Virus record (IMG/VR): IMGVR_UViG_3300045988_165319
Coordinates: 1-31,874 of that record
From: a virus
DNA length: 31,874 bases
Reading direction: 5' to 3' (one strand)
Position numbers and translations under genes: made by a program. Shown piece by piece: positions 1-31,874 of this stretch. A model generated the notes under the pieces. That model ran no database searches. It was not told where the DNA came from and was given only the letters and a program-made list of their open reading frames with translations. Numbering within the stretch: the first letter of the stretch is position 1; each line of letters starts with the position of its first letter.

Positions 1-55
<55 letters not shown>

Positions 56-2328: not shown

Positions 2329-2336
2329 ATTATACA
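2329..2336 (-). promoter_or_regulatory. Late-type -10 (TGTATAAT) upstream of the endolysin
   Basis: Minus strand reads GGTGTATAATG about 40 nt upstream of the lysin ATG. It is a one-T-shorter variant of the TGTTATAAT late promoter family. Confidence 0.4.
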
Positions 2337-3619
2337 CCAGCCGGGGTATTCTCCTGCCAGCCCGTTTCGTCGTCATTGTTTCTAAACTTCCACCACCGCT
2401 TACGTATCACATCTACATATTCAGGTGATAGTTCAGCTCCATAACATGTTCGACCTATTTGTTCGCAAGCCATCAAGGTTGATCCACTGCCGAGGAATGG
2501 GTCTAGCACTAGCTCATTGGATTGAGTGCTGTTATTGACCAGATATGCCATTAGCCCGACGGGCTTCATGGTGGGGTGGTCGAGCGATTTATTCGGCTTA
2601 TCGTGTTTGATAACCGTCTGCGGTAGTGTTTCCAGCATCCCTTTTAGCAGAGCCCTCAAGGCGTCTGCGCTCATTGAGTCGATATCGTCTATCTTGTCAT
2701 ATACGGTTGTAAGCGAGCGGTCGGCGATGAAGTAGTGCGATGCCCCCTCCTTAAACCCGTAAATAATCGGCTCATGCCGATAGTGGTAATCGTTGTGCGA
2801 TAGTACTAAGTGATTTTTGACCCAGACCAGGTCTTGAGTGATGTGCAACCCAACGTTCGCCGTTATAGCTTGCCTCACTTCTCTTGCCATCGACGAAGCG
2901 TAAAACACATAGAATGCTCCGCCGAGCTTGAGGTGATTGTTCGCCTCACTAAAGGCTTGCTTCAAAAACGCCTCCAGTTTTTCACTATCAACCTGGTCAT
3001 TGTCAATACTCACCTTTTTAGCTTTACCGACATAGCCGACGCCATAGGGCGGGTCGGTGAGCAATAGGTCGGCTCGCTGTCCGTCCATTAGCTTATCGAT
3101 AATGGTGTGGTCGGTACTATCGCCACATATCACCCTATGTCGCCCCAGCATGTACACTTCGCCAGGCTTACTGACGGGTGCTTCAGTCGATACTGTCGGT
3201 GGAGCGTCTTCAATAATCTCTACCTCTCCCTGGTCTGGCATATCGGGAATATCCAGCCCCCAGTCCTCCAAGGTCGCCACGTCCCAGCTGTTACTTAACT
3301 CATCCCAGTCCCAGTCGCCATAGGGCAGGTTATCCTTTACGATAAACTCTTTCTTCTGCTCTTCAGTTAGCCCCGTTACTTGGACAACCTCTATATCTTC
3401 ATAGCCGAGCTGTTTCAGCGCTCGATAGCGCATATTACCACCCAGGATGATATTGTCCTCGTCGACGATGATTGGGCGTATGCCCGTCATTTCGGGGAAC
3501 TCTCGGATGCTTTTGACCAGCTTAGCTAATTTATCTTTAGTGATGTGACGTGGGTTATTCTTGTTTAACTTGACGTCTTTCAGCCTCAGTCGAATAGTCT
3601 GTTTAGTGAACTTAGCCAC
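2330..3619 (-). CDS. ParB-like nuclease domain fused to a beta-class DNA methyltransferase (N6A/N4C type)
   Basis: The N-terminus has a ParB N-domain pattern (IRPIIVDEDNIILGGNMRYRALKQLG). The MTase part has motif IV (LLLTDPPYG) before motif I (LVLDPFLGSGST), i.e. a beta-class order. GTG start with SD AAAGGAG. Confidence 0.75.
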   Translation of the reverse strand: MAKFTKQTIRLRLKDVKLNKNNPRHITKDKLAKLVKSIREFPEMTGIRPIIVDEDNIILGGNMRYRALKQLGYEDIEVVQVTGLTEEQKKEFIVKDNLPYGDWDWDELSNSWDVATLEDWGLDIPDMPDQGEVEIIEDAPPTVSTEAPVSKPGEVYMLGRHRVICGDSTDHTIIDKLMDGQRADLLLTDPPYGVGYVGKAKKVSIDNDQVDSEKLEAFLKQAFSEANNHLKLGGAFYVFYASSMAREVRQAITANVGLHITQDLVWVKNHLVLSHNDYHYRHEPIIYGFKEGASHYFIADRSLTTVYDKIDDIDSMSADALRALLKGMLETLPQTVIKHDKPNKSLDHPTMKPVGLMAYLVNNSTQSNELVLDPFLGSGSTLMACEQIGRTCYGAELSPEYVDVIRKRWWKFRNNDDETGWQENTPAGV

Positions 3620-3644
3620 CCTTGCTCCTTTCTTAGTTACGGTT

Positions 3645-3653
3645 ATTATAGCA
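3645..3653 (-). promoter_or_regulatory. Extended -10 promoter (TGCTATAAT) for the MTase/lysis minus block
   Basis: Minus strand reads GGGTGCTATAATAACC about 25 nt upstream of the GTG start. It has the TGn extension typical of Gram-positive promoters. Confidence 0.5.
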
Positions 3654-3803
3654 CCCTCTCTTATAAAAGGTAAGAGCCCCGCCGGGTGGGAGGCGAGGCT
3701 TCTTGAAAGGAGACACTCTCATGACAACAGGCGTTGCAATGATGAGTAGTGATTAGAGAATATGCGACCCTAATCACGTTAGTATTATATCGCAAAACAA
3801 GGT

Positions 3804-3870
3804 GGCTAGGCTATTGTGCCTTGGCTCAAACCCAGAAAACCAAGGCGATACAGACAACAATAGCCTAGCC
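3804..3870 (+). other. Long nested stem-loop in the non-coding region (14-bp outer stem, 6-bp inner stem)
   Basis: GGCTAGGCTATTGT at 3804-3817 pairs with ACAATAGCCTAGCC at 3857-3870. The inner stem is CCTTGG/CCAAGG around a 15-nt loop. It is not a tRNA cloverleaf. Confidence 0.5.
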
Positions 3871-4001
3871 TTAAACGTGCGAGCACAGCAACTGTAGATT
3901 ACACAACTATCTGAATGTATGTGGTGACATGTAGTAGAACGAGACAAGCTGTTACGGTGCTATGGCTTCATGTTATCAAGTCACGTTATTTAAGTAAATA
4001 A

Positions 4002-4030
4002 CTATACCCCGGCGTGGAGCCGGGGTATAG
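4002..4030 (+). other. Perfect 12-bp hairpin CTATACCCCGGC-GTGGA-GCCGGGGTATAG
   Basis: Perfect inverted repeat with a 5-nt loop. On the minus strand it is followed by a T-rich stretch (TTATTTACTT). It belongs to the TATACCCC...GGGGTATA hairpin family also seen at 4920-4946 and 5039-5067. Confidence 0.5.
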
Positions 4031-4134
4031 AAGTTAGAAGGTGTGTACCCTACACGGATACCTTTAATGAAAGTATCACGGTGGCGGTTTATTGGCAAGC
4101 TATTTATTGATGTATTTATTACCTATCATAGGGC

Positions 4135-4163
4135 TTGCGTTTTCATATGAGGTTATATATAAT
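4135..4163 (+). promoter_or_regulatory. Early promoter P1 (TTGCGT-N17-TATAAT) with the conserved leader
   Basis: TAGGGCTTGCGT -35 block, 17-nt spacer, perfect TATAAT, then the conserved leader ATCATCAAATGAAAGGAGGAATGATGAG. Confidence 0.7.
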
Positions 4164-4189
4164 AACCATATCATCAAATGAAAGGAGGA

Positions 4190-4909
4190 ATGATGAGAGT
4201 TAATGAAAACCTAAGGAATGCTATCAGCCGAGTAGCTGACTATGAGTGCCTAAAACGAATTGAGGGCGAGGTAATCGGTTATTACCTCATGAAGGGCTAC
4301 ACCGTGCTACATAATAGCGTGGTCATCGATGAGGTGCTGAAGCCTAGCGATGAGGTCAAGCGACTGTTTAAGCGGGCGGGCATAGATGCTAGCGACGATG
4401 CTTATTGGGCGTTACTGGACATGCTTGATAAAGAACGTATTGCCGTTAAGATATGGCGCAAGCGTAACGGTCGGCTTACTTTAAGCAACACGATTGACAC
4501 TATGATTGCTTATCTTACCTGGCAGGATTTAGCCGGGGCGGTCACGCAGGATGATAACGACGAGGTCGTTTACGCCAAGTGCGAACGTGGCGTGCGAGCT
4601 ATGCACTATCTGCCTTACTGGGACGAGCTGGTGGCTGATGCTAAGGCTAAGGCTCACGAGAAGTTAGACAGAGAGTGTCGAGCAGTGGGCGAGAATAATT
4701 TATTGCCCGAACAAAAGCGAGTGATTTTCAGTCTAGCTCTGACCGATGCGCTTTACGATAACGTTTGCCGTAACGTCCTATATCTCAAAGAAAGTGAGAC
4801 TGTTTCGGTGGCTGATTACGAGTTTGGCTCTGCTTCGGCGCTGAGCGATATTGTCAGTAGTATTATCGGACACGAGATGAACATCGTTGCTGATGATATG
4901 GTGTTTTAG
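4190..4909 (+). CDS. Hypothetical protein (~239 aa)
   Basis: The ORF track starts at 4178 (MKGGMM), but that ATG lies inside the SD. Likely starts are the ATGATG at 4190 or 4193, downstream of AAAGGAGG. No domain recognised. Confidence 0.55.
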   Translation: MMRVNENLRNAISRVADYECLKRIEGEVIGYYLMKGYTVLHNSVVIDEVLKPSDEVKRLFKRAGIDASDDAYWALLDMLDKERIAVKIWRKRNGRLTLSNTIDTMIAYLTWQDLAGAVTQDDNDEVVYAKCERGVRAMHYLPYWDELVADAKAKAHEKLDRECRAVGENNLLPEQKRVIFSLALTDALYDNVCRNVLYLKESETVSVADYEFGSASALSDIVSSIIGHEMNIVADDMVF

Positions 4910-4919
4910 GGTAGTAAAA

Positions 4920-4946
4920 ATAGCCCTTCTGATTTAGAGGGGCTAT
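4920..4946 (+). other. Hairpin ATAGCCCTTCT-GATTT-AGAGGGGCTAT just after the stop of gene 4190-4909
   Basis: 11-bp stem with one G:U pair. An A-run precedes it and no U-run follows on the plus strand. Possibly a weak terminator or an RNA stability element. Confidence 0.4.
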
Positions 4947-5038
4947 CCCAGCCGGGCGACGTATTTACAATACGCTTAGTCATTCGACCGCTTACGGCTG
5001 TGCAACAGTACTTACGTCTGTAATATCACAATAATAAA

Positions 5039-5106: not shown

Positions 5107-5424
5107 ATGACCGCAGATCAAAATACACCTGGTTTTATTGTACCAGATGTAGGTGAGAAGTCAAGATTTCATGTTGATACTTTCGACTCCACCATTCTTT
5201 ACGACAATTATCTAACAAGTAACCAGAAAGTTGTCTATTTCTATTATTGCCAGCACGACCAGATTAGCGAGACGGCTGAGCAAGTCGCCAGTTTTCTTTA
5301 TTTAGGCGTCAGCACCGTAAAAGAGGCATGGCGTCGGCTCGAGGAGGATGGTTATTTGAAACTTATTGAGAAAAGAGGGCGAGTGCGTACGTACGTCGCC
5401 ATTTTTAAGTGCGGGCTATGGTAA
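5107..5424 (+). CDS. Small winged-helix-like DNA-binding protein (105 aa), possibly replication-associated
   Basis: SD GAAAGGAG 7 nt upstream. SETAEQVASFLYLGVSTVKEAWRRLEEDGYL resembles an HTH/wHTH segment. It sits immediately upstream of the initiator gene. Confidence 0.45.
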   Translation: MTADQNTPGFIVPDVGEKSRFHVDTFDSTILYDNYLTSNQKVVYFYYCQHDQISETAEQVASFLYLGVSTVKEAWRRLEEDGYLKLIEKRGRVRTYVAIFKCGLW

Positions 5425-5441
5425 AGAATAAGGAGGGTAAT

Positions 5442-6500
5442 ATGTCAAGCCAAAATAAGCAAAACTATCTATTAACGCCACAATCGCTTTTTGCGTGTGA
5501 TAAGTTCAGCTTAGCCGAGAAGGTGGTATTGGCTAGGGCGATGAGTTTCGGTAATCATCGCTATTACGAGTCGGTCGAGAAGACAGCATCGTTCTTGGGT
5601 ATAAGCGAGTCGGCAGTTGAAAAGGCGAGGGCTAAGTTTATCAAGCTAGGCTACTTTAAGAAGGTCGGCTATAGCAACAATAGGGTAGTTTATGAAGTAT
5701 GTGACGACATTATTGAGAAAGATTGTCAAGTGAGAAGAATTACAAAGAATGACATTTCTTTTTGTCCGAAACAATCGCAGAATGTGCAACCAACAATCGC
5801 AGAATGTGCGATTTCTCAAAACGATACATATATATATAATAATAAAGAAGATAATAAAGATATAACCCCCCTAAACCCCCCCATGGGGGGTTGTGTGGGG
5901 CAAAAAGACAAAAATGATGAAAAAGGAGAGGTTGACAACATATTTAATTTATGGCTTAGCTGTTTTGGGCTTTCGGAGCGTAAATTGACGCCCGGTCGGC
6001 AAACGAAGATTAGGCGACGTTTGAAGGATTGCGGTAAAGACCAGCTGGAGCTGGCTATCCGCAACGCTAGCCAGGACTACTTCTACCGTGGCGACAATGA
6101 CCGTGGCTGGCAGGCGGACATCGACTACATCTGCCGTTCAGCCGAGATTGTCGAACGATTAGCAAACATGACACCTAGGAGTGAACGCCCTATGACCTGG
6201 TGGGAAGAGAAGCAACAACGTGAGCTTGAGCAGTGCGCTCCCCGCTACGGCGGGTCGGAGCGGGGGTATACCGTGGCGGAAGAGGACGACGACCTGGTTA
6301 TTGCCTCCCCCGACTCTGCTCCCAATCCCGATGCTAAACCGACACCCGAGAAAACAGATAAGCCAGATCAGGATGAAGCTCCTGTCCCGCTGGACATGGA
6401 TGAGCTAAGGAAGCGATTTCTAGAGGGTAAAGCCAGGGCTATCAAGAGAAGGGATGAGGCTTTGAGCAACGATGAGGCGAGAACGAAGGTTGGCTTATGA
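5442..6500 (+). CDS. Replication initiator / phage replisome organizer (N-terminal wHTH plus C-terminal DnaD-like conserved phage C-terminus)
   Basis: Likely start is the ATG at 5442, with AAGGAGGG 6 nt upstream (the track start at 5409 lacks an SD). The N-terminus LAEKVVLARAMSFGN...SFLGISESAVEKARAKFIKLGYF is wHTH-like. The C-terminus DNIFNLWLSCFG...LELAIRNASQDYFYRGDNDRGWQADIDYI matches the replisome-organizer C-terminal family. Iterons lie inside the gene. Confidence 0.65.
   Translation: MSSQNKQNYLLTPQSLFACDKFSLAEKVVLARAMSFGNHRYYESVEKTASFLGISESAVEKARAKFIKLGYFKKVGYSNNRVVYEVCDDIIEKDCQVRRITKNDISFCPKQSQNVQPTIAECAISQNDTYIYNNKEDNKDITPLNPPMGGCVGQKDKNDEKGEVDNIFNLWLSCFGLSERKLTPGRQTKIRRRLKDCGKDQLELAIRNASQDYFYRGDNDRGWQADIDYICRSAEIVERLANMTPRSERPMTWWEEKQQRELEQCAPRYGGSERGYTVAEEDDDLVIASPDSAPNPDAKPTPEKTDKPDQDEAPVPLDMDELRKRFLEGKARAIKRRDEALSNDEARTKVGL
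5771..5809 (+). promoter_or_regulatory. Iteron pair ACAATCGCAGAATGTGC x2 with 22-bp periodicity (putative origin inside the initiator gene)
   Basis: Two exact 17-mers at 5771-5787 and 5793-5809. They are followed by a ~55-bp AT-rich tract and the palindrome CCCCCCATGGGGGG. Confidence 0.55.
5877..5890. promoter_or_regulatory. Perfect 14-bp palindrome CCCCCCATGGGGGG next to the AT-rich tract (origin-associated)
   Basis: Read directly. It lies at the end of the AT-rich stretch 5815-5870. Confidence 0.5.
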
Positions 6501-6721: not shown

Positions 6722-6746
6722 CGCCGTATCATCAATGAAAGGAGGA

Positions 6747-7205
6747 ATGATGAGTAAAAATAAGGGCGTCGTCTATCAGTTGATAGCTTTCAATCGGCAG
6801 ACGAAGGAGGAAGTCGTGGTGGGCTACGGTAGTCTCAACGAGATTTGCGAGCTGATCTACACCGACTACAACTACGATGGGGAGATTACGCTGGCTGACG
6901 AGGATGCTTACGATGCCGTCGTCTCGGTTATTGAGGCGATCCGCAATTCATTGCCGACCGTGGGGCGTAAGGAGGGCGGTTATGACGTGCCGAGCGATAT
7001 CGTGGAAGACATACGGCAAAGCGTCGATGTTGCCGTTACGGACTACGTCGCTCACGCCCATAGGTTGCTGTCGGCTCGAAGTCGTCACCCTGAGCGCACT
7101 AAAGTAGAGCGGTTTAACCAGTACTTTGACAGGATGATAGCCGGCTTTAAGCTTTGTGAGGATAACCCGAGCCTTGTCCATGAGGAAGAAAAGTCGGGTG
7201 ACTAA
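6747..7205 (+). CDS. Hypothetical protein (~152 aa)
   Basis: Start at the ATGATG at 6747 or 6750, downstream of AAAGGAGG. The track start at 6660 is upstream of the promoter. Confidence 0.5.
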   Translation: MMSKNKGVVYQLIAFNRQTKEEVVVGYGSLNEICELIYTDYNYDGEITLADEDAYDAVVSVIEAIRNSLPTVGRKEGGYDVPSDIVEDIRQSVDVAVTDYVAHAHRLLSARSRHPERTKVERFNQYFDRMIAGFKLCEDNPSLVHEEEKSGD

Positions 7206-8518: not shown

Positions 8519-8543
8519 TGTAAATGTGGCTATGCTATAGGGC

Positions 8544-8572
8544 TTGCGTCTTGGGGTGGGGTGAGATATAGT
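8544..8572 (+). promoter_or_regulatory. Early promoter P3 (TTGCGT-N17-TATAGT) with the conserved leader
   Basis: The segment 8500-8570 is about 90% identical to 10882-10952. Confidence 0.65.
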
Positions 8573-8598
8573 GTGTGTATCATCAAATGAAAGGAGGA

Positions 8599-8775
8599 AT
8601 GATGAGAAGCAGTAAACTCAACTTTCACCGAGTTGGGGGACGGGTGGTTATCGAGCGAGACGATGATTACTTTCTGAAGTCCGACATTGTCGGCTTAAAG
8701 ATTAGCCTGGGGCTGATAATTGCGCTGTTTGCGCCATTAGCTATCCATGCTGTCGGGGCGTTGTTCGTGGAGTAA
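8599..8775 (+). CDS. Small membrane protein (~58 aa)
   Basis: ATGATG start after AAAGGAGG. Hydrophobic C-terminal helix GLIIALFAPLAIHAVGALFV. Confidence 0.5.
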   Translation: MMRSSKLNFHRVGGRVVIERDDDYFLKSDIVGLKISLGLIIALFAPLAIHAVGALFVE

Positions 8776-10489: not shown

Positions 10490-10900
10490 ATGAATGATGA
10501 CGATTTTGCTAAGCCGACAGACGGCATCCTGGGTGACGGGGTGCTGTCTTTTCGGTTAGCCCAGCTTTATGTTGGTGAGCCTAGGTATCACTGGGTCTAT
10601 CGCAACTATCTGGATCGCTTTACCCTATATCCTGTCGCTAGTGACAAATATCGAGGGCTACTGATTGTGCAGGTGGGCTTTGGGCGGGTGAGGCTACGGA
10701 CTCGAACGGGGGCGTGGGCTACCGAGCGATTGCGCCATATATCGATAGCTTGCGCTAAGCTACATAGTCACTTCAATTACGCTGTAGCTATCGTTACTAC
10801 TGCCGAAGACGCCAAGGCTATCTATCAATCATATGTTGACGGGACGAGCTATATCGATAACTTGACGGCTAATGCCTGCGGTGAGTTATCCACAGCTTGA
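10490..10900 (+). CDS. Hypothetical protein (136 aa)
   Basis: The ORF ends with ELSTA inside the repeated promoter module, paralleling the ELSTP ending of 7898-8518. Confidence 0.5.
   Translation: MNDDDFAKPTDGILGDGVLSFRLAQLYVGEPRYHWVYRNYLDRFTLYPVASDKYRGLLIVQVGFGRVRLRTRTGAWATERLRHISIACAKLHSHFNYAVAIVTTAEDAKAIYQSYVDGTSYIDNLTANACGELSTA
10886..10894 (+). promoter_or_regulatory. DnaA-box-like TTATCCACA upstream of P4
   Basis: Exact 9-mer read directly. Confidence 0.45.
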
Positions 10901-10925
10901 TGTAAATGTGGCTATGCTATAGGGC

Positions 10926-10954
10926 TTGCGTCTTAAGGTGGGGTGAGGTATGAT
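10926..10954 (+). promoter_or_regulatory. Early promoter P4 (TTGCGT-N17-TATGAT) with the conserved leader
   Basis: Same module as P3. Leader is TATCGTCAATGAAAGGAGGAATGATGAG. Confidence 0.65.
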
Positions 10955-10979
10955 ACTTGTATCGTCAATGAAAGGAGGA

Positions 10980-11330
10980 ATGATGAGTGAAAATAAGGAC
11001 AGTGGCGACATGGAGCAACTGCTCATAGCGATGAGTGCTACGTGCACGTTGCTGGAATGTGCAATAGCTGATCATAGCAACAATCATAGCCTGGTAGGGA
11101 TGTGCGCCATAGCTAACGAGCTTCAATGTCACGCCCGTGCTGTCTATAAGGCACTTACTATGGACAAAGTGGGCAAGTCGAACAGTGGGAGATTTAGCCT
11201 CGAGGAGAGTATTGACGAGCTGGAGGAGTTGATAACCGAGGCTGAGGCGTCAATGCTTATGAATAAGCTCGTGGATGGATGTAGGGCGATGTCCGGCGCC
11301 GGTGAGTCGAAGGACGATGATGGCGAGTAA
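10980..11330 (+). CDS. Hypothetical acidic protein (~116 aa)
   Basis: ATGATG start after AAAGGAGG. The C-terminus is Asp/Glu-rich. Confidence 0.5.
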   Translation: MMSENKDSGDMEQLLIAMSATCTLLECAIADHSNNHSLVGMCAIANELQCHARAVYKALTMDKVGKSNSGRFSLEESIDELEELITEAEASMLMNKLVDGCRAMSGAGESKDDDGE

Positions 11331-15251: not shown

Positions 15252-15280
15252 TCCGAGATATTTTATCGCTTTATTGTTAA

Positions 15281-15310
15281 AGATGAGTATATACTCATCT
15301 TTTTATTTAT
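15281..15310. terminator. Bidirectional intrinsic terminator between the convergent early and late blocks
   Basis: 20-nt perfect palindrome AGATGAGTATATACTCATCT followed by TTTTTATTTAT on the plus strand and TTTAACAATAAAG on the minus strand. Confidence 0.7.
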
Positions 15311-15312
15311 CA

Positions 15313-15364
15313 CGTCACACAGAGGCTCTGGTGCGGTCTGAGGGGGTGTTTTGTGGGAGGGGTG
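15313..15364 (+). repeat. Conserved G-rich element, copy B, between the terminator and the HNH gene stop
   Basis: CACGTCACACAGAGGCTCTGGTGCGGTCTGAGGGGGTGTTTTGTGGGAGGGG. See copies A and C. Confidence 0.85.
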
Positions 15365-31072: not shown

Positions 31073-31143
31073 GCCAATAATCAGCCGTTTTGGCTACATG
31101 CCGTGTGGTTTATTCTCTGCCCGTTTTGTCGCTTTATTGTTAG

Positions 31144-31171
31144 AGATGGGCATGTACCCATCTTTTTGTTT
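31144..31171. terminator. Terminator hairpin AGATGGG-CATGTA-CCCATCT plus T-run (variant of the 15281 hairpin)
   Basis: Compared with copy B, the stem carries compensatory A>G and T>C changes. Followed by TTTTTGTTT. Confidence 0.6.
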
Positions 31172-31181
31172 AGGACGCCGT

Positions 31182-31229
31182 ACAGAGGCTCTGGTGCGGT
31201 CTGAGGGGGTATTTTGTGGGAGGGTAGGT
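31182..31229 (+). repeat. Conserved G-rich element, copy C
   Basis: TACAGAGGCTCTGGTGCGGTCTGAGGGGGTATTTTGTGGGAGGGTAGG. Confidence 0.85.
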
Positions 31230-31586: not shown

Positions 31587-31775
31587 CTAGCCCCTCTCAC
31601 CCCGCCCGTCTGGGCGGGGCTTCTTTACGCCCTTTATCTTATTATTGTGCGACATTAGGGGTTAGCGTTAGGGCTATATGTTTATGTGTCTTTGCTTTTT
31701 ATCGGGGCTTAGGCGGGCGCTGGTGCGGTCGTTTATCAGCATCGGTTAGGTGTCTTGTCAAGGGCTACTACTGTT
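31587..31775 (+). repeat. 189-bp direct repeat, right copy (DR-R)
   Basis: Exact copy of 527-715. A partial extra copy of its 3' part (GTCAAGGGCTACTGCTATTGGCTGGGGGCTGGGGCTGGGG) lies at 31459-31498. Confidence 0.9.
31600..31630 (+). terminator. Second copy of the DR terminator hairpin
   Basis: Identical to 540-570 because it is part of DR-R. Confidence 0.6.

Positions 31776-31815: not shown

Positions 31816-31874
<59 letters not shown>

Follow-up and report, generated by a model that had tools for sequence, protein, structure and literature searches.

The 31,874-nucleotide (nt) virus record IMGVR_UViG_3300045988_165319 (~32 kb; hereafter the window) is essentially the whole genome of an uncultivated phage. 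Between its divergent gene blocks lies a gap of about 570 bp (positions 3620 to 4192), bordered by a DNA methyltransferase gene on the minus strand and by the first early gene on the plus strand. We found that this gap is the most structured part of the genome and that its stems keep pairing in relatives. The gap is best explained as a compact transcription-control region with two parts. The right part (4100 to 4192) would be one copy of a repeated plus-strand early promoter with its leader, while the left part (3620 to 4100) would carry, on the minus strand, three successive units of the same layout and then the promoter of the methyltransferase operon. Each unit appears to contain a -10 element (an extended TGn -10 in the predicted promoters Pa and Pb), then an RNA with a helix at its 5' end, and a GC-rich hairpin with a U-rich tail. 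The most likely products would be three short structured non-coding RNAs, which we call U1 (~70 nt), U2 (~170 nt) and U3 (~115 nt). In addition, U3 may damp in trans the translation of four early genes that bear the leader, in the manner of c4 of phages P1 and P7 or sar of P22. Judged from the sequence, this explanation as a whole, with three minus-strand RNAs and U3 as an antisense RNA on the early leader, has about an even chance of being correct.

Structure and conservation of the gap

The initial annotation had listed four structures in the gap, and all four were found in place (Table 1). The position and the outer stem of the nested hairpin were as described; its inner stem, GCCTTGG/CCAAGGC, has 7 bp and not 6. 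When the region from 3660 to 4075 was folded, the minimum energy was -145.8 kcal/mol for the minus strand (z = -7.1 against dinucleotide shuffles) and -145.5 kcal/mol for the plus strand (z = -5.8). For the nested hairpin, the folding energy was -34 to -39 kcal/mol and the z score about -5.5 to -5.8, and the region from 4002 to 4030 has a folding z score of about -4.8. The genome was also scanned in 791 segments of 120 nt on both strands. The most structured segment of the 791 was 3661 to 3780 (minus strand, z = -7.4), inside the gap; 3781 to 3900 was joint second (z = -6.8, tied with 10501 to 10620), and 3981 to 4100 was among the top seven. The gap thus holds far more structure than the remainder of the genome, an excess far beyond chance. 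The last ~90 nt (4100 to 4192) are accounted for as one copy of a repeated promoter-leader cassette.

The gap was recovered from 11 related contigs, which gave nine distinct haplotypes including that of the window. Mean pairwise identity of the gap across these relatives was 0.92. In the three flanking genes, identity was 0.78 to 0.79 at third codon positions and 0.92 to 0.99 at first and second positions. Since the gap is more conserved than third codon positions, it evolves as a constrained sequence, and the comparison supports purifying selection on it.

The gap had been described as having no plausible open reading frame (ORF), and this holds: the longest ORF has 57 amino acids (aa), and all tracked ORFs of at least 30 aa are broken in relatives. 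Frameshifting indels near 3767, 3834, 3860, 3897, 4048 and 4070 destroy the 30- to 57-aa ORFs at 3661 to 3947 and shift the ORFs at 3976 to 4150. Small plus-strand ORFs (~28 to 48 aa, with starts near 3916 and 4043) recur without a ribosome-binding site, and the one from 4043 runs over the promoter block. An 11-codon micro-ORF (3721 to 3756) has a good Shine-Dalgarno (SD) sequence. In L020, the most divergent haplotype, its start codon is changed and 4 of the 11 residues are altered, and the changes coincide exactly with compensatory partners in an RNA hairpin. A protein-coding gap was ruled out by the indel-broken ORFs, the missing ribosome-binding sites and the non-synonymous change in the micro-ORF.

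RNAalifold gave clean consensus structures for U1, U2 and U3. Across 84 pairs in nine helices, 98.1% were paired in the nine-sequence alignment. Double changes that keep pairing were found at seven pairs in five of the nine helices: in the U1 hairpin, in the terminator hairpin T1, at two pairs of the inner stem of T3 (the nested hairpin), in the 5' hairpin of U3 and at two pairs of its middle hairpin. None of 500 shuffles reached the observed pairing and double-change values, and sliding the partners by 1 to 3 columns lowered the pairing to 32 to 45%, with at most one double-change pair. The stems of T1, T2, T3 and U3 had identities of 0.86 to 0.98, the short 5' hairpin of U1 being the exception among stems (0.65), while the inner loop of T3 had an identity of 0.53 with indels of 3 to 6 nt. 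Variation was thus concentrated in loops and promoter spacers. The initial annotation had offered stem conservation and compensatory changes in relatives as a comparative test, and the stems indeed keep pairing there. Together, the conservation and the compensatory changes fit one or more small structured RNAs.

The strand of U3 is clearly the minus strand. Its consensus fold has -45.8 kcal/mol on the minus strand versus -37.2 kcal/mol on the plus strand, and the z scores of its segment are -7.4 and -2.6, respectively. The terminator hairpin T2 of U3 has a z score of -4.3 on the minus strand versus -1.9 on the plus strand, and one pair in its stem alternates between U.G and C-G, which on the plus strand would give a C.A mismatch. 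Furthermore, T-rich tails, which the initial annotation had missed, follow all three terminator hairpins (3675 to 3700, 3804 to 3870 and 4002 to 4030) on the minus strand only. With these tails, the structures can be assigned to a strand and are likely to act as terminators.

Predicted terminators, promoters and RNAs of the minus strand

The terminator scan found four sites versus 0.5 expected, and flagged T1 and T2 on the minus strand. In both, a GC-rich stem-loop runs straight into a U-rich tract of the transcribed strand, the form of an intrinsic (Rho-independent) terminator. T1 is the top-ranked terminator-like site in the first 16 kb, and one of its pairs shows a compensatory change from U-A to C-G in L020. 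T3 was not flagged because its loop exceeds the limit of the scan. Two pairs of its inner stem covary over five haplotype classes, and its loop is highly variable with indels. T1 was also considered as the terminator of the DUF3800-I RNA, another minus-strand RNA of this genome, and was ruled out in that role, since DUF3800-I has its own terminator. The hairpins singled out in the initial annotation would mainly be the terminators and the 5' stabilizing helices of U1 to U3.

A repressor-operator set had been suggested for the gap, and no repeated operator set was found in it. The symmetry of the 18-bp palindrome at 3985 to 4002 is broken by T>G and T>C in L008-L012 and by further substitutions in L020. 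Since the palindrome is not conserved in relatives, it was ruled out as an operator. A better reading is that the U-tail of T1 here overlaps the -35 element of the next predicted promoter, Pb.

Putative promoters were compared with the sigma-70 pattern, in which -35 and -10 hexamers are separated by a 16- to 18-nt spacer and are conserved over a drifting spacer. In the predicted minus-strand promoters, the -10 and TG elements show little or no change over drifting spacers, most clearly in L020. The -35 boxes are weak, and the predicted starts each lie 0 to 3 nt from a helix. In the putative methyltransferase promoter, TGnTATAAT is invariant (identity 1.00) and the spacer has an identity of 0.75; its -10/start region, TATAATAACC(G/A)TA, matches the plus-strand cassette promoter. 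The -10 of Pc is invariant (1.00) in all haplotypes, including L020, and its predicted start is at the foot of the U3 5' hairpin. The -10 of Pb is TAATAT in L008/L009, and in L020 the -35, TG and -10 of Pb are kept while 4 of the 14 spacer bases upstream of TG are changed. Pa, back to back with the cassette promoter, is the weakest predicted promoter in the window, and its -10 is TACATT or TACAGT in relatives. The window alone has a 4-nt insertion at 4067 to 4070 (GAAA on the plus strand) in the -10 of Pa, which turns TACATT into TACTTT. Pa could be weaker in this one genome.

These predicted promoter and terminator elements define the putative ends of U1 to U3, which would accumulate as separate RNAs. 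In U1, the linker ACACACCUUCUAAC (4044 to 4031) is single-stranded and conserved (identity 0.98), and the 5' hairpin shows a compensatory change from A-U to G-C together with C-G/U.G alternation. In U2, helix A and the small hairpin vary by G.U/Watson-Crick alternation only, and the segment ATTCAGATAGTTGTGTAATCT is invariant in all haplotypes. In U3, three pairs have compensatory double changes, CUCCUUUCA (3712 to 3704) is invariant and single-stranded in the consensus fold, and the pyrimidine-rich single strand UCUCCUUUCA has an identity of 1.00. A conserved pyrimidine-rich single strand lies just 5' of the terminator in both U1 (CCUUCU) and U3 (CUCCUUUCA). A pyrimidine-rich strand before the terminator is the usual layout of anti-SD small RNAs, and the strands in U1 and U3 could pair with SD regions.

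A scan for known RNA families, also proposed in the initial annotation, found none in the gap: with the Rfam 15 covariance models over 3400 to 4400, the best score was 23.9 bits for CC0196, versus a threshold of 35, and was driven by the T1 hairpin. Even at E values up to 10, neither the DUF3800-I model nor the drum, skipping-rope and remaining DUF3800-associated models matched U1 to U3. A search for tRNA and tmRNA genes was likewise negative.

Table 1. Positions of the genes, structures and predicted elements discussed in the text
Feature	Position	Strand	Description
ParB-N6/N4 DNA methyltransferase gene	2330-3619	minus	left flank; GTG start at 3619
Methyltransferase operon promoter (predicted)	3645-3673	minus	-35 TTACCT 3673-3668, TGc 3653-3651, -10 TATAAT 3650-3645
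U3 (candidate RNA, ~115 nt)	3663-3777	minus	5' hairpin (3777-3749), middle hairpin (3748-3714), T2
T2 (predicted terminator)	3663-3700	minus	9 bp, 7 GC; arms AGCCUCGCC/GGCGGGGCU (3700-3692 / 3683-3675); tail CUUACCUUUUAU (CTTACCTTTT, CTTACCTTTTAT)
Inverted repeat	3749-3777		GTGATTAG/CTAATCAC
Pc (predicted promoter)	3784-3789	minus	perfect TATAAT -10; weak -35 (TAGCCT); predicted start near 3777
T3 (nested hairpin, predicted terminator)	3791-3870	minus	outer stem 3870-3861 / 3813-3804, inner stem 3846-3840 / 3824-3818; tail ACCUUGUUUUGCG (ACCTTGTTTTGCG)
U2 (candidate RNA, ~170 nt)	3793-3963	minus	helix A (3961-3951 / 3891-3881), small hairpin (3920-3916 / 3905-3901), conserved unpaired stretches, T3
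Nested hairpin, outer arms	3804-3817 / 3857-3870		14-nt perfect arms
Pb (predicted promoter)	3970-3998	minus	-35 TTTACT 3998-3993, 17-nt spacer, TGa TAACAT 3978-3970
18-bp near-palindrome	3985-4002		GTTATTTA/TAAATAAC; overlaps T1 tail and Pb -35
T1 (predicted terminator)	3992-4030	minus	12-bp stem, 8 GC (4030-4019 / 4013-4002); tail UUAUUUACUU (TTATTTACTT)
U1 (candidate RNA, ~70 nt)	3993-4063	minus	5' hairpin (4061-4056 / 4050-4045), then T1
Hairpin	4002-4013 / 4019-4030		12-nt perfect arms
Pa (predicted promoter)	4070-4098	minus	-35 TTGCCA 4098-4093, 17-nt spacer, TGa and -10 TACTTT 4075-4070
Early promoter-leader cassette (predicted)	4100-4192	plus	-35 TTGCGT 4135-4140, -10 TATAAT 4158-4163, leader TATCATCAAATGAAAGGAGGAATGATG
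238-aa gene, function unassigned	start ATG 4193	plus	right flank, first early gene
DUF3800-I RNA (Rfam RF02969)	4910-5028	minus	76 bits vs 44-bit threshold; own terminator
Origin-like features	5700-5910		in O-like initiator gene 5409-6500; two exact 18-nt direct repeats AACAATCGCAGAATGTGC at 5770 and 5792

The repeated early leader and its complementarity to U3

The right end of the gap is repeated elsewhere in the genome. The pattern TAGGGCTTGCGT-N17-TATRRT occurs at 4129, 8538 and 10920 (three sites versus none expected), and the leader TATCATCAAATGAAAGGAGGAATGATGAG recurs at 6734, 8578 and 10967. About 90 nt of the region are therefore explained as the first copy of an early promoter-leader. 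The leader is common to four plus-strand early genes. The upstream block of the cassette is conserved and holds the small palindrome CTATCATAG, and across relatives the spacer varies between conserved hexamers. The other cassette or leader copies (8538 to 8607, 10920 to 10987 and 6734 to 6754) have an identical SD sequence and first codons (ATGATGAG). The short-read contigs L007, L015 and L016 begin 25 to 76 nt before the 238-aa gene, as if the assemblies break at the cassette repeat.

Parts of the leader are also found at the U3 locus. We found that AATGATGAG occurs five times in the genome (~0.25 expected), in the four leaders and once in the U3 locus, and that TGAAAGGAG occurs seven times (~0.25 expected), always on the plus strand, at six SD sites before plus-strand genes and in the U3 copy. 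At the U3 locus, AATGATGAG lies 26 nt from TGAAAGGAG, in the order and on the strand of the leader. As a result, CUCCUUUCA of U3 complements the six gene-proximal copies of UGAAAGGAG, the seventh copy being the U3 locus, and U3 also carries CUCAUCAUU, so that two 9-nt segments around its middle hairpin complement the SD sequence and the start codons of the leader. From this complementarity, which is the most promising clue to a function, we infer that U3 might damp the translation of the leader genes in trans. Specific targeting of the leaders did not emerge from duplexfold and cofold, which failed to single out the leader-bearing genes, and the idea is kept on the basis of sequence identity. 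On the other hand, the leader-like repeat in U3 could be a mere decayed copy of the cassette.

Several observations weigh against the proposed two-part region with its three RNAs. The promoters were called by eye, none passes the 9/12 rule of the scan, and Pa matches the consensus at 8 of 12 positions. T3, strong and conserved as its stem is, would be an atypical terminator, with a 39-nt nested interior and a U-run (UUGUUUUG) that starts 3 nt after the stem. U1 and U2 fold equally on both strands, and their strand call therefore rests on the U-tails and the promoter elements; single-sided changes favor the minus over the plus strand by ~10 to 7, which is weak. Since the nine haplotypes are closely related, the covariation counts rest on few events and are support rather than proof. 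The T3 tail is bridged by covarying pairing of 3880-3877 with 3794-3791, which suits a longer read-through RNA better than separate units. As to the action of U3, the second complementary 9-mer is buried in a stem, and in a simple cofold the leader start regions gave -8 to -12 kcal/mol versus -18.5 kcal/mol for the top U3 partner.

Genomic setting, alternative explanations and known systems

The flanks, described earlier as a minus-strand methyltransferase and a plus-strand early gene, are as stated. The start of the right-flank gene was placed at ATG 4193 because all its homologues have 238 aa. To the left, beyond the methyltransferase, the minus strand encodes an endolysin and then a small-terminase-like protein, and to the right of the 238-aa gene the plus strand carries replication initiator-like genes. 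No Pfam family matched the 238-aa protein even at E values up to 10, and a DUF3800 protein, the usual partner of such an RNA, was not recognized; the AlphaFold model of the 238-aa protein, with a predicted local distance difference test score (pLDDT) of 49, was too poor for a structure search.

The related contigs, from human-associated metagenomes, have 29.9 to 32.6 kb. The closest, L022 (CALIXD010000109.1, also IMGVR_UViG_3300045988_179655; 29,942 nt), is in a metagenome-assembled genome labelled Candidatus Saccharibacteria. The host may thus belong to the candidate phyla radiation (Saccharibacteria) if the binning of L022 is right, and this is a hint from binning only. The same trinucleotide repeat, (TAG)n, makes up both ends of the window (1 to 55 and 31816 to 31874), and a 189-nt stretch is duplicated exactly at 527 to 715 and 31587 to 31775. 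The terminal repeats suggest a circular or terminally redundant genome, or a junction assembly artefact. Two related elements of ~50 nt, at 15279 to 15361 and 31142 to 31229, each stand beside a hairpin and a T-run, one at the convergent junction of plus and minus blocks and the other upstream of structural genes. Their likely role is that of shared terminators or of sites for late control.

Homologues were searched for by megablast, blastn and tblastn in cultured phages (50,697 phage records, INPHARED), and none was found. The identity of methyltransferase homologues drops from 91 to 95% to ~54% beyond the close clade, and the phages with a ~54% methyltransferase or a ~55 to 60% endolysin have a collinear gene order and no equivalent gap. 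Neither blastn nor nhmmer found gap similarity in L003, L004, L017-L019 and L024-L028, and the U3 covariance model had no match in L003, L004 and L017-L019. Pattern scans of metagenomes found nothing, and those of viral contigs yielded no further relative, only the known relative contig and L004, which lacks gap similarity. The structured elements appear to be confined to one close clade. In L017-L019 and L024, the methyltransferase (~54%) and the endolysin (~57%) are both on the same strand as the replication genes. From this collinear order, the studied clade seems to carry an inverted segment with the structured gap at one boundary.

The pairing across the T3 tail would fit an alternative in which the gap is one long regulated leader. 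Pa would be constitutive and fire into three intrinsic terminators, and phage antitermination would allow read-through into the methyltransferase, the endolysin and the following genes, as in the P_R'/6S RNA/t_R' arrangement of lambda with Q. Three predicted same-strand terminators do lie upstream of an operon with an endolysin and a small-terminase-like gene, and terminators upstream of an endolysin/terminase operon are the lambdoid late-operon order. The long-range pairing of the U1 hairpin with U2 in the minimum-energy fold would also suit a single transcript. However, just beyond T2 the methyltransferase has an invariant predicted promoter (TGcTATAAT) of its own, which shares the -10/start sequence of the cassette promoter, so that read-through is not needed, and a perfect invariant TATAAT follows T3. 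A Q-dependent late leader of lambdoid type goes with an antiterminator gene and with late genes that lack their own promoter, and neither was found here. Of the ~29 proteins scanned, none was recognized as Q-like or as belonging to another antiterminator family, which is weak evidence because most of these proteins match no family. Overall, we regard the long leader as unlikely.

There are two further alternatives, each very improbable in our estimate. One is a replication origin of the lactococcal c2 (Ceduovirus) type, in which an untranslated structured transcript primes or activates replication. The gap is placed like the Ceduovirus origins, being non-coding, ORF-free, promoter-flanked, between divergent modules and over 90% conserved in the group (PMC7150918), and the cumulative GC skew turns at the gap, a turn that gene orientation would also produce. 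A more conventional origin candidate, however, lies inside the O-like replication initiator gene, with a 10-nt repeat at 5735, the AT run TACATATATATA at 5825 to 5838, opposed C- and G-runs at 5866 to 5900 and the lowest GC content of the genome. Moreover, the candidate transcripts, terminators and -10 elements of the gap face away from the early genes, unlike PE1 of c2, and the gap has neither iterons nor sequence similarity to any INPHARED phage, including the c2, bIL67 and 923 origin types. The other alternative is a hub at the DNA level, with the inverted repeats acting as protein operators or cruciforms for the divergent promoters. Compensatory changes keep an inverted repeat on both strands and therefore do not by themselves prove an RNA; in addition, U1 and U2 lack a strand bias, and CTATCATAG adjoins the -35 of the cassette, with a related sequence at the other copies. 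Against this hub, the arms are 5 to 39 nt apart with variable loop lengths and indels, an uncommon layout in operators. The gap contains no recurring motif, and the one true palindrome is not conserved. RNA is indicated by the G.U-only pairs and by how strongly U3 differs between the strands, and the T-tails are consistently on one strand.

Read as a two-part region with three RNAs, the gap is plausibly an RNA-based control point and not a new kind of system. U1 to U3 would be ordinary in kind, as phage small RNAs, promoters, terminators and divergent control regions go, while being unclassified and unusually dense, with three in tandem. A bolder proposal, which we consider distinctly doubtful, is an RNA-only timing switch: the tandem U1 to U3 and DUF3800-I would flank the first early gene as a multi-RNA module, and U3, derived from a duplicated leader, would shut off the four leader operons as a trans-antisense RNA, replacing a protein repressor in a possible Saccharibacteria phage, a kind of phage whose biology is essentially unknown. 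If the RNAs are real, ~1.5% of the genome is given to three unclassified structured RNAs, besides DUF3800-I, to which no function has been assigned since 2017. The gap would then be a compact and tractable case for the timing of gene expression in phages without recognizable protein regulators and for what DUF3800-I-type RNAs do. With one leader on four early genes and an antisense segment to match, it would offer a directly testable circuit. Even if the RNAs are not made, the promoters and terminators of the gap form a clearly bounded set that can help in the annotation of this phage group.

Among known systems, c4 is processed from a longer transcript, while U3 appears to have its own predicted promoter. 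Like c4 of P1/P7, U3 has two short complementary segments, here of 9 nt, that match the SD sequence and start codons of a leader. U3 differs from c4 and from sar of P22 in having no sequence or Rfam similarity to them, in that it would act in trans on four dispersed genes and not on one antirepressor, and in that one segment is buried in a stem. The c4 and sar RNAs are short, structured and terminated, and both block translation by pairing around a ribosome-binding site, c4 through two short complementary segments; OOP of lambda is a short terminated transcript from a constitutive promoter (PMC12197685). The candidate RNAs would resemble OOP and the lambda 6S/t_R' unit as short terminated transcripts from constitutive promoters at a control point between gene blocks; unlike OOP, which is cis-antisense to cII, they overlap no gene. 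In lambda, the lysis genes come right after the 6S/t_R' unit, another point of likeness. The differences are that no Q-like factor was identified and that the downstream operon has its own strong predicted promoter.

In Ceduovirus, the origin region has no ORFs, is flanked by promoters, separates the divergent early and late modules and is over 90% conserved in the group (PMC7150918). The gap shares its non-coding nature, divergent modules, conservation and flanking promoters. It differs from that origin in transcript orientation, which is opposite, in having three predicted terminator-bounded units rather than one early transcript, in sequence, and in that the initiator gene holds a better origin candidate.

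A further comparison lies within the same genome. DUF3800-I, the only Rfam family above threshold in the window, lies 720 nt from the gap, antisense to the early genes and directly after the 238-aa gene. A promoter-like site at 5164 to 5137 on the minus strand (10/12 match with TG) would make its unit 5164 to 4910. RNAs of this class are conserved and have 3' terminators, and their function is unknown (Weinberg et al., PMC5737381). Although U1 to U3 match no DUF3800-I model, DUF3800-I resembles them as a terminator-ended, structured minus-strand RNA in the plus-strand early region and thus gives a bona fide precedent in this genome for a minus-strand RNA gene.

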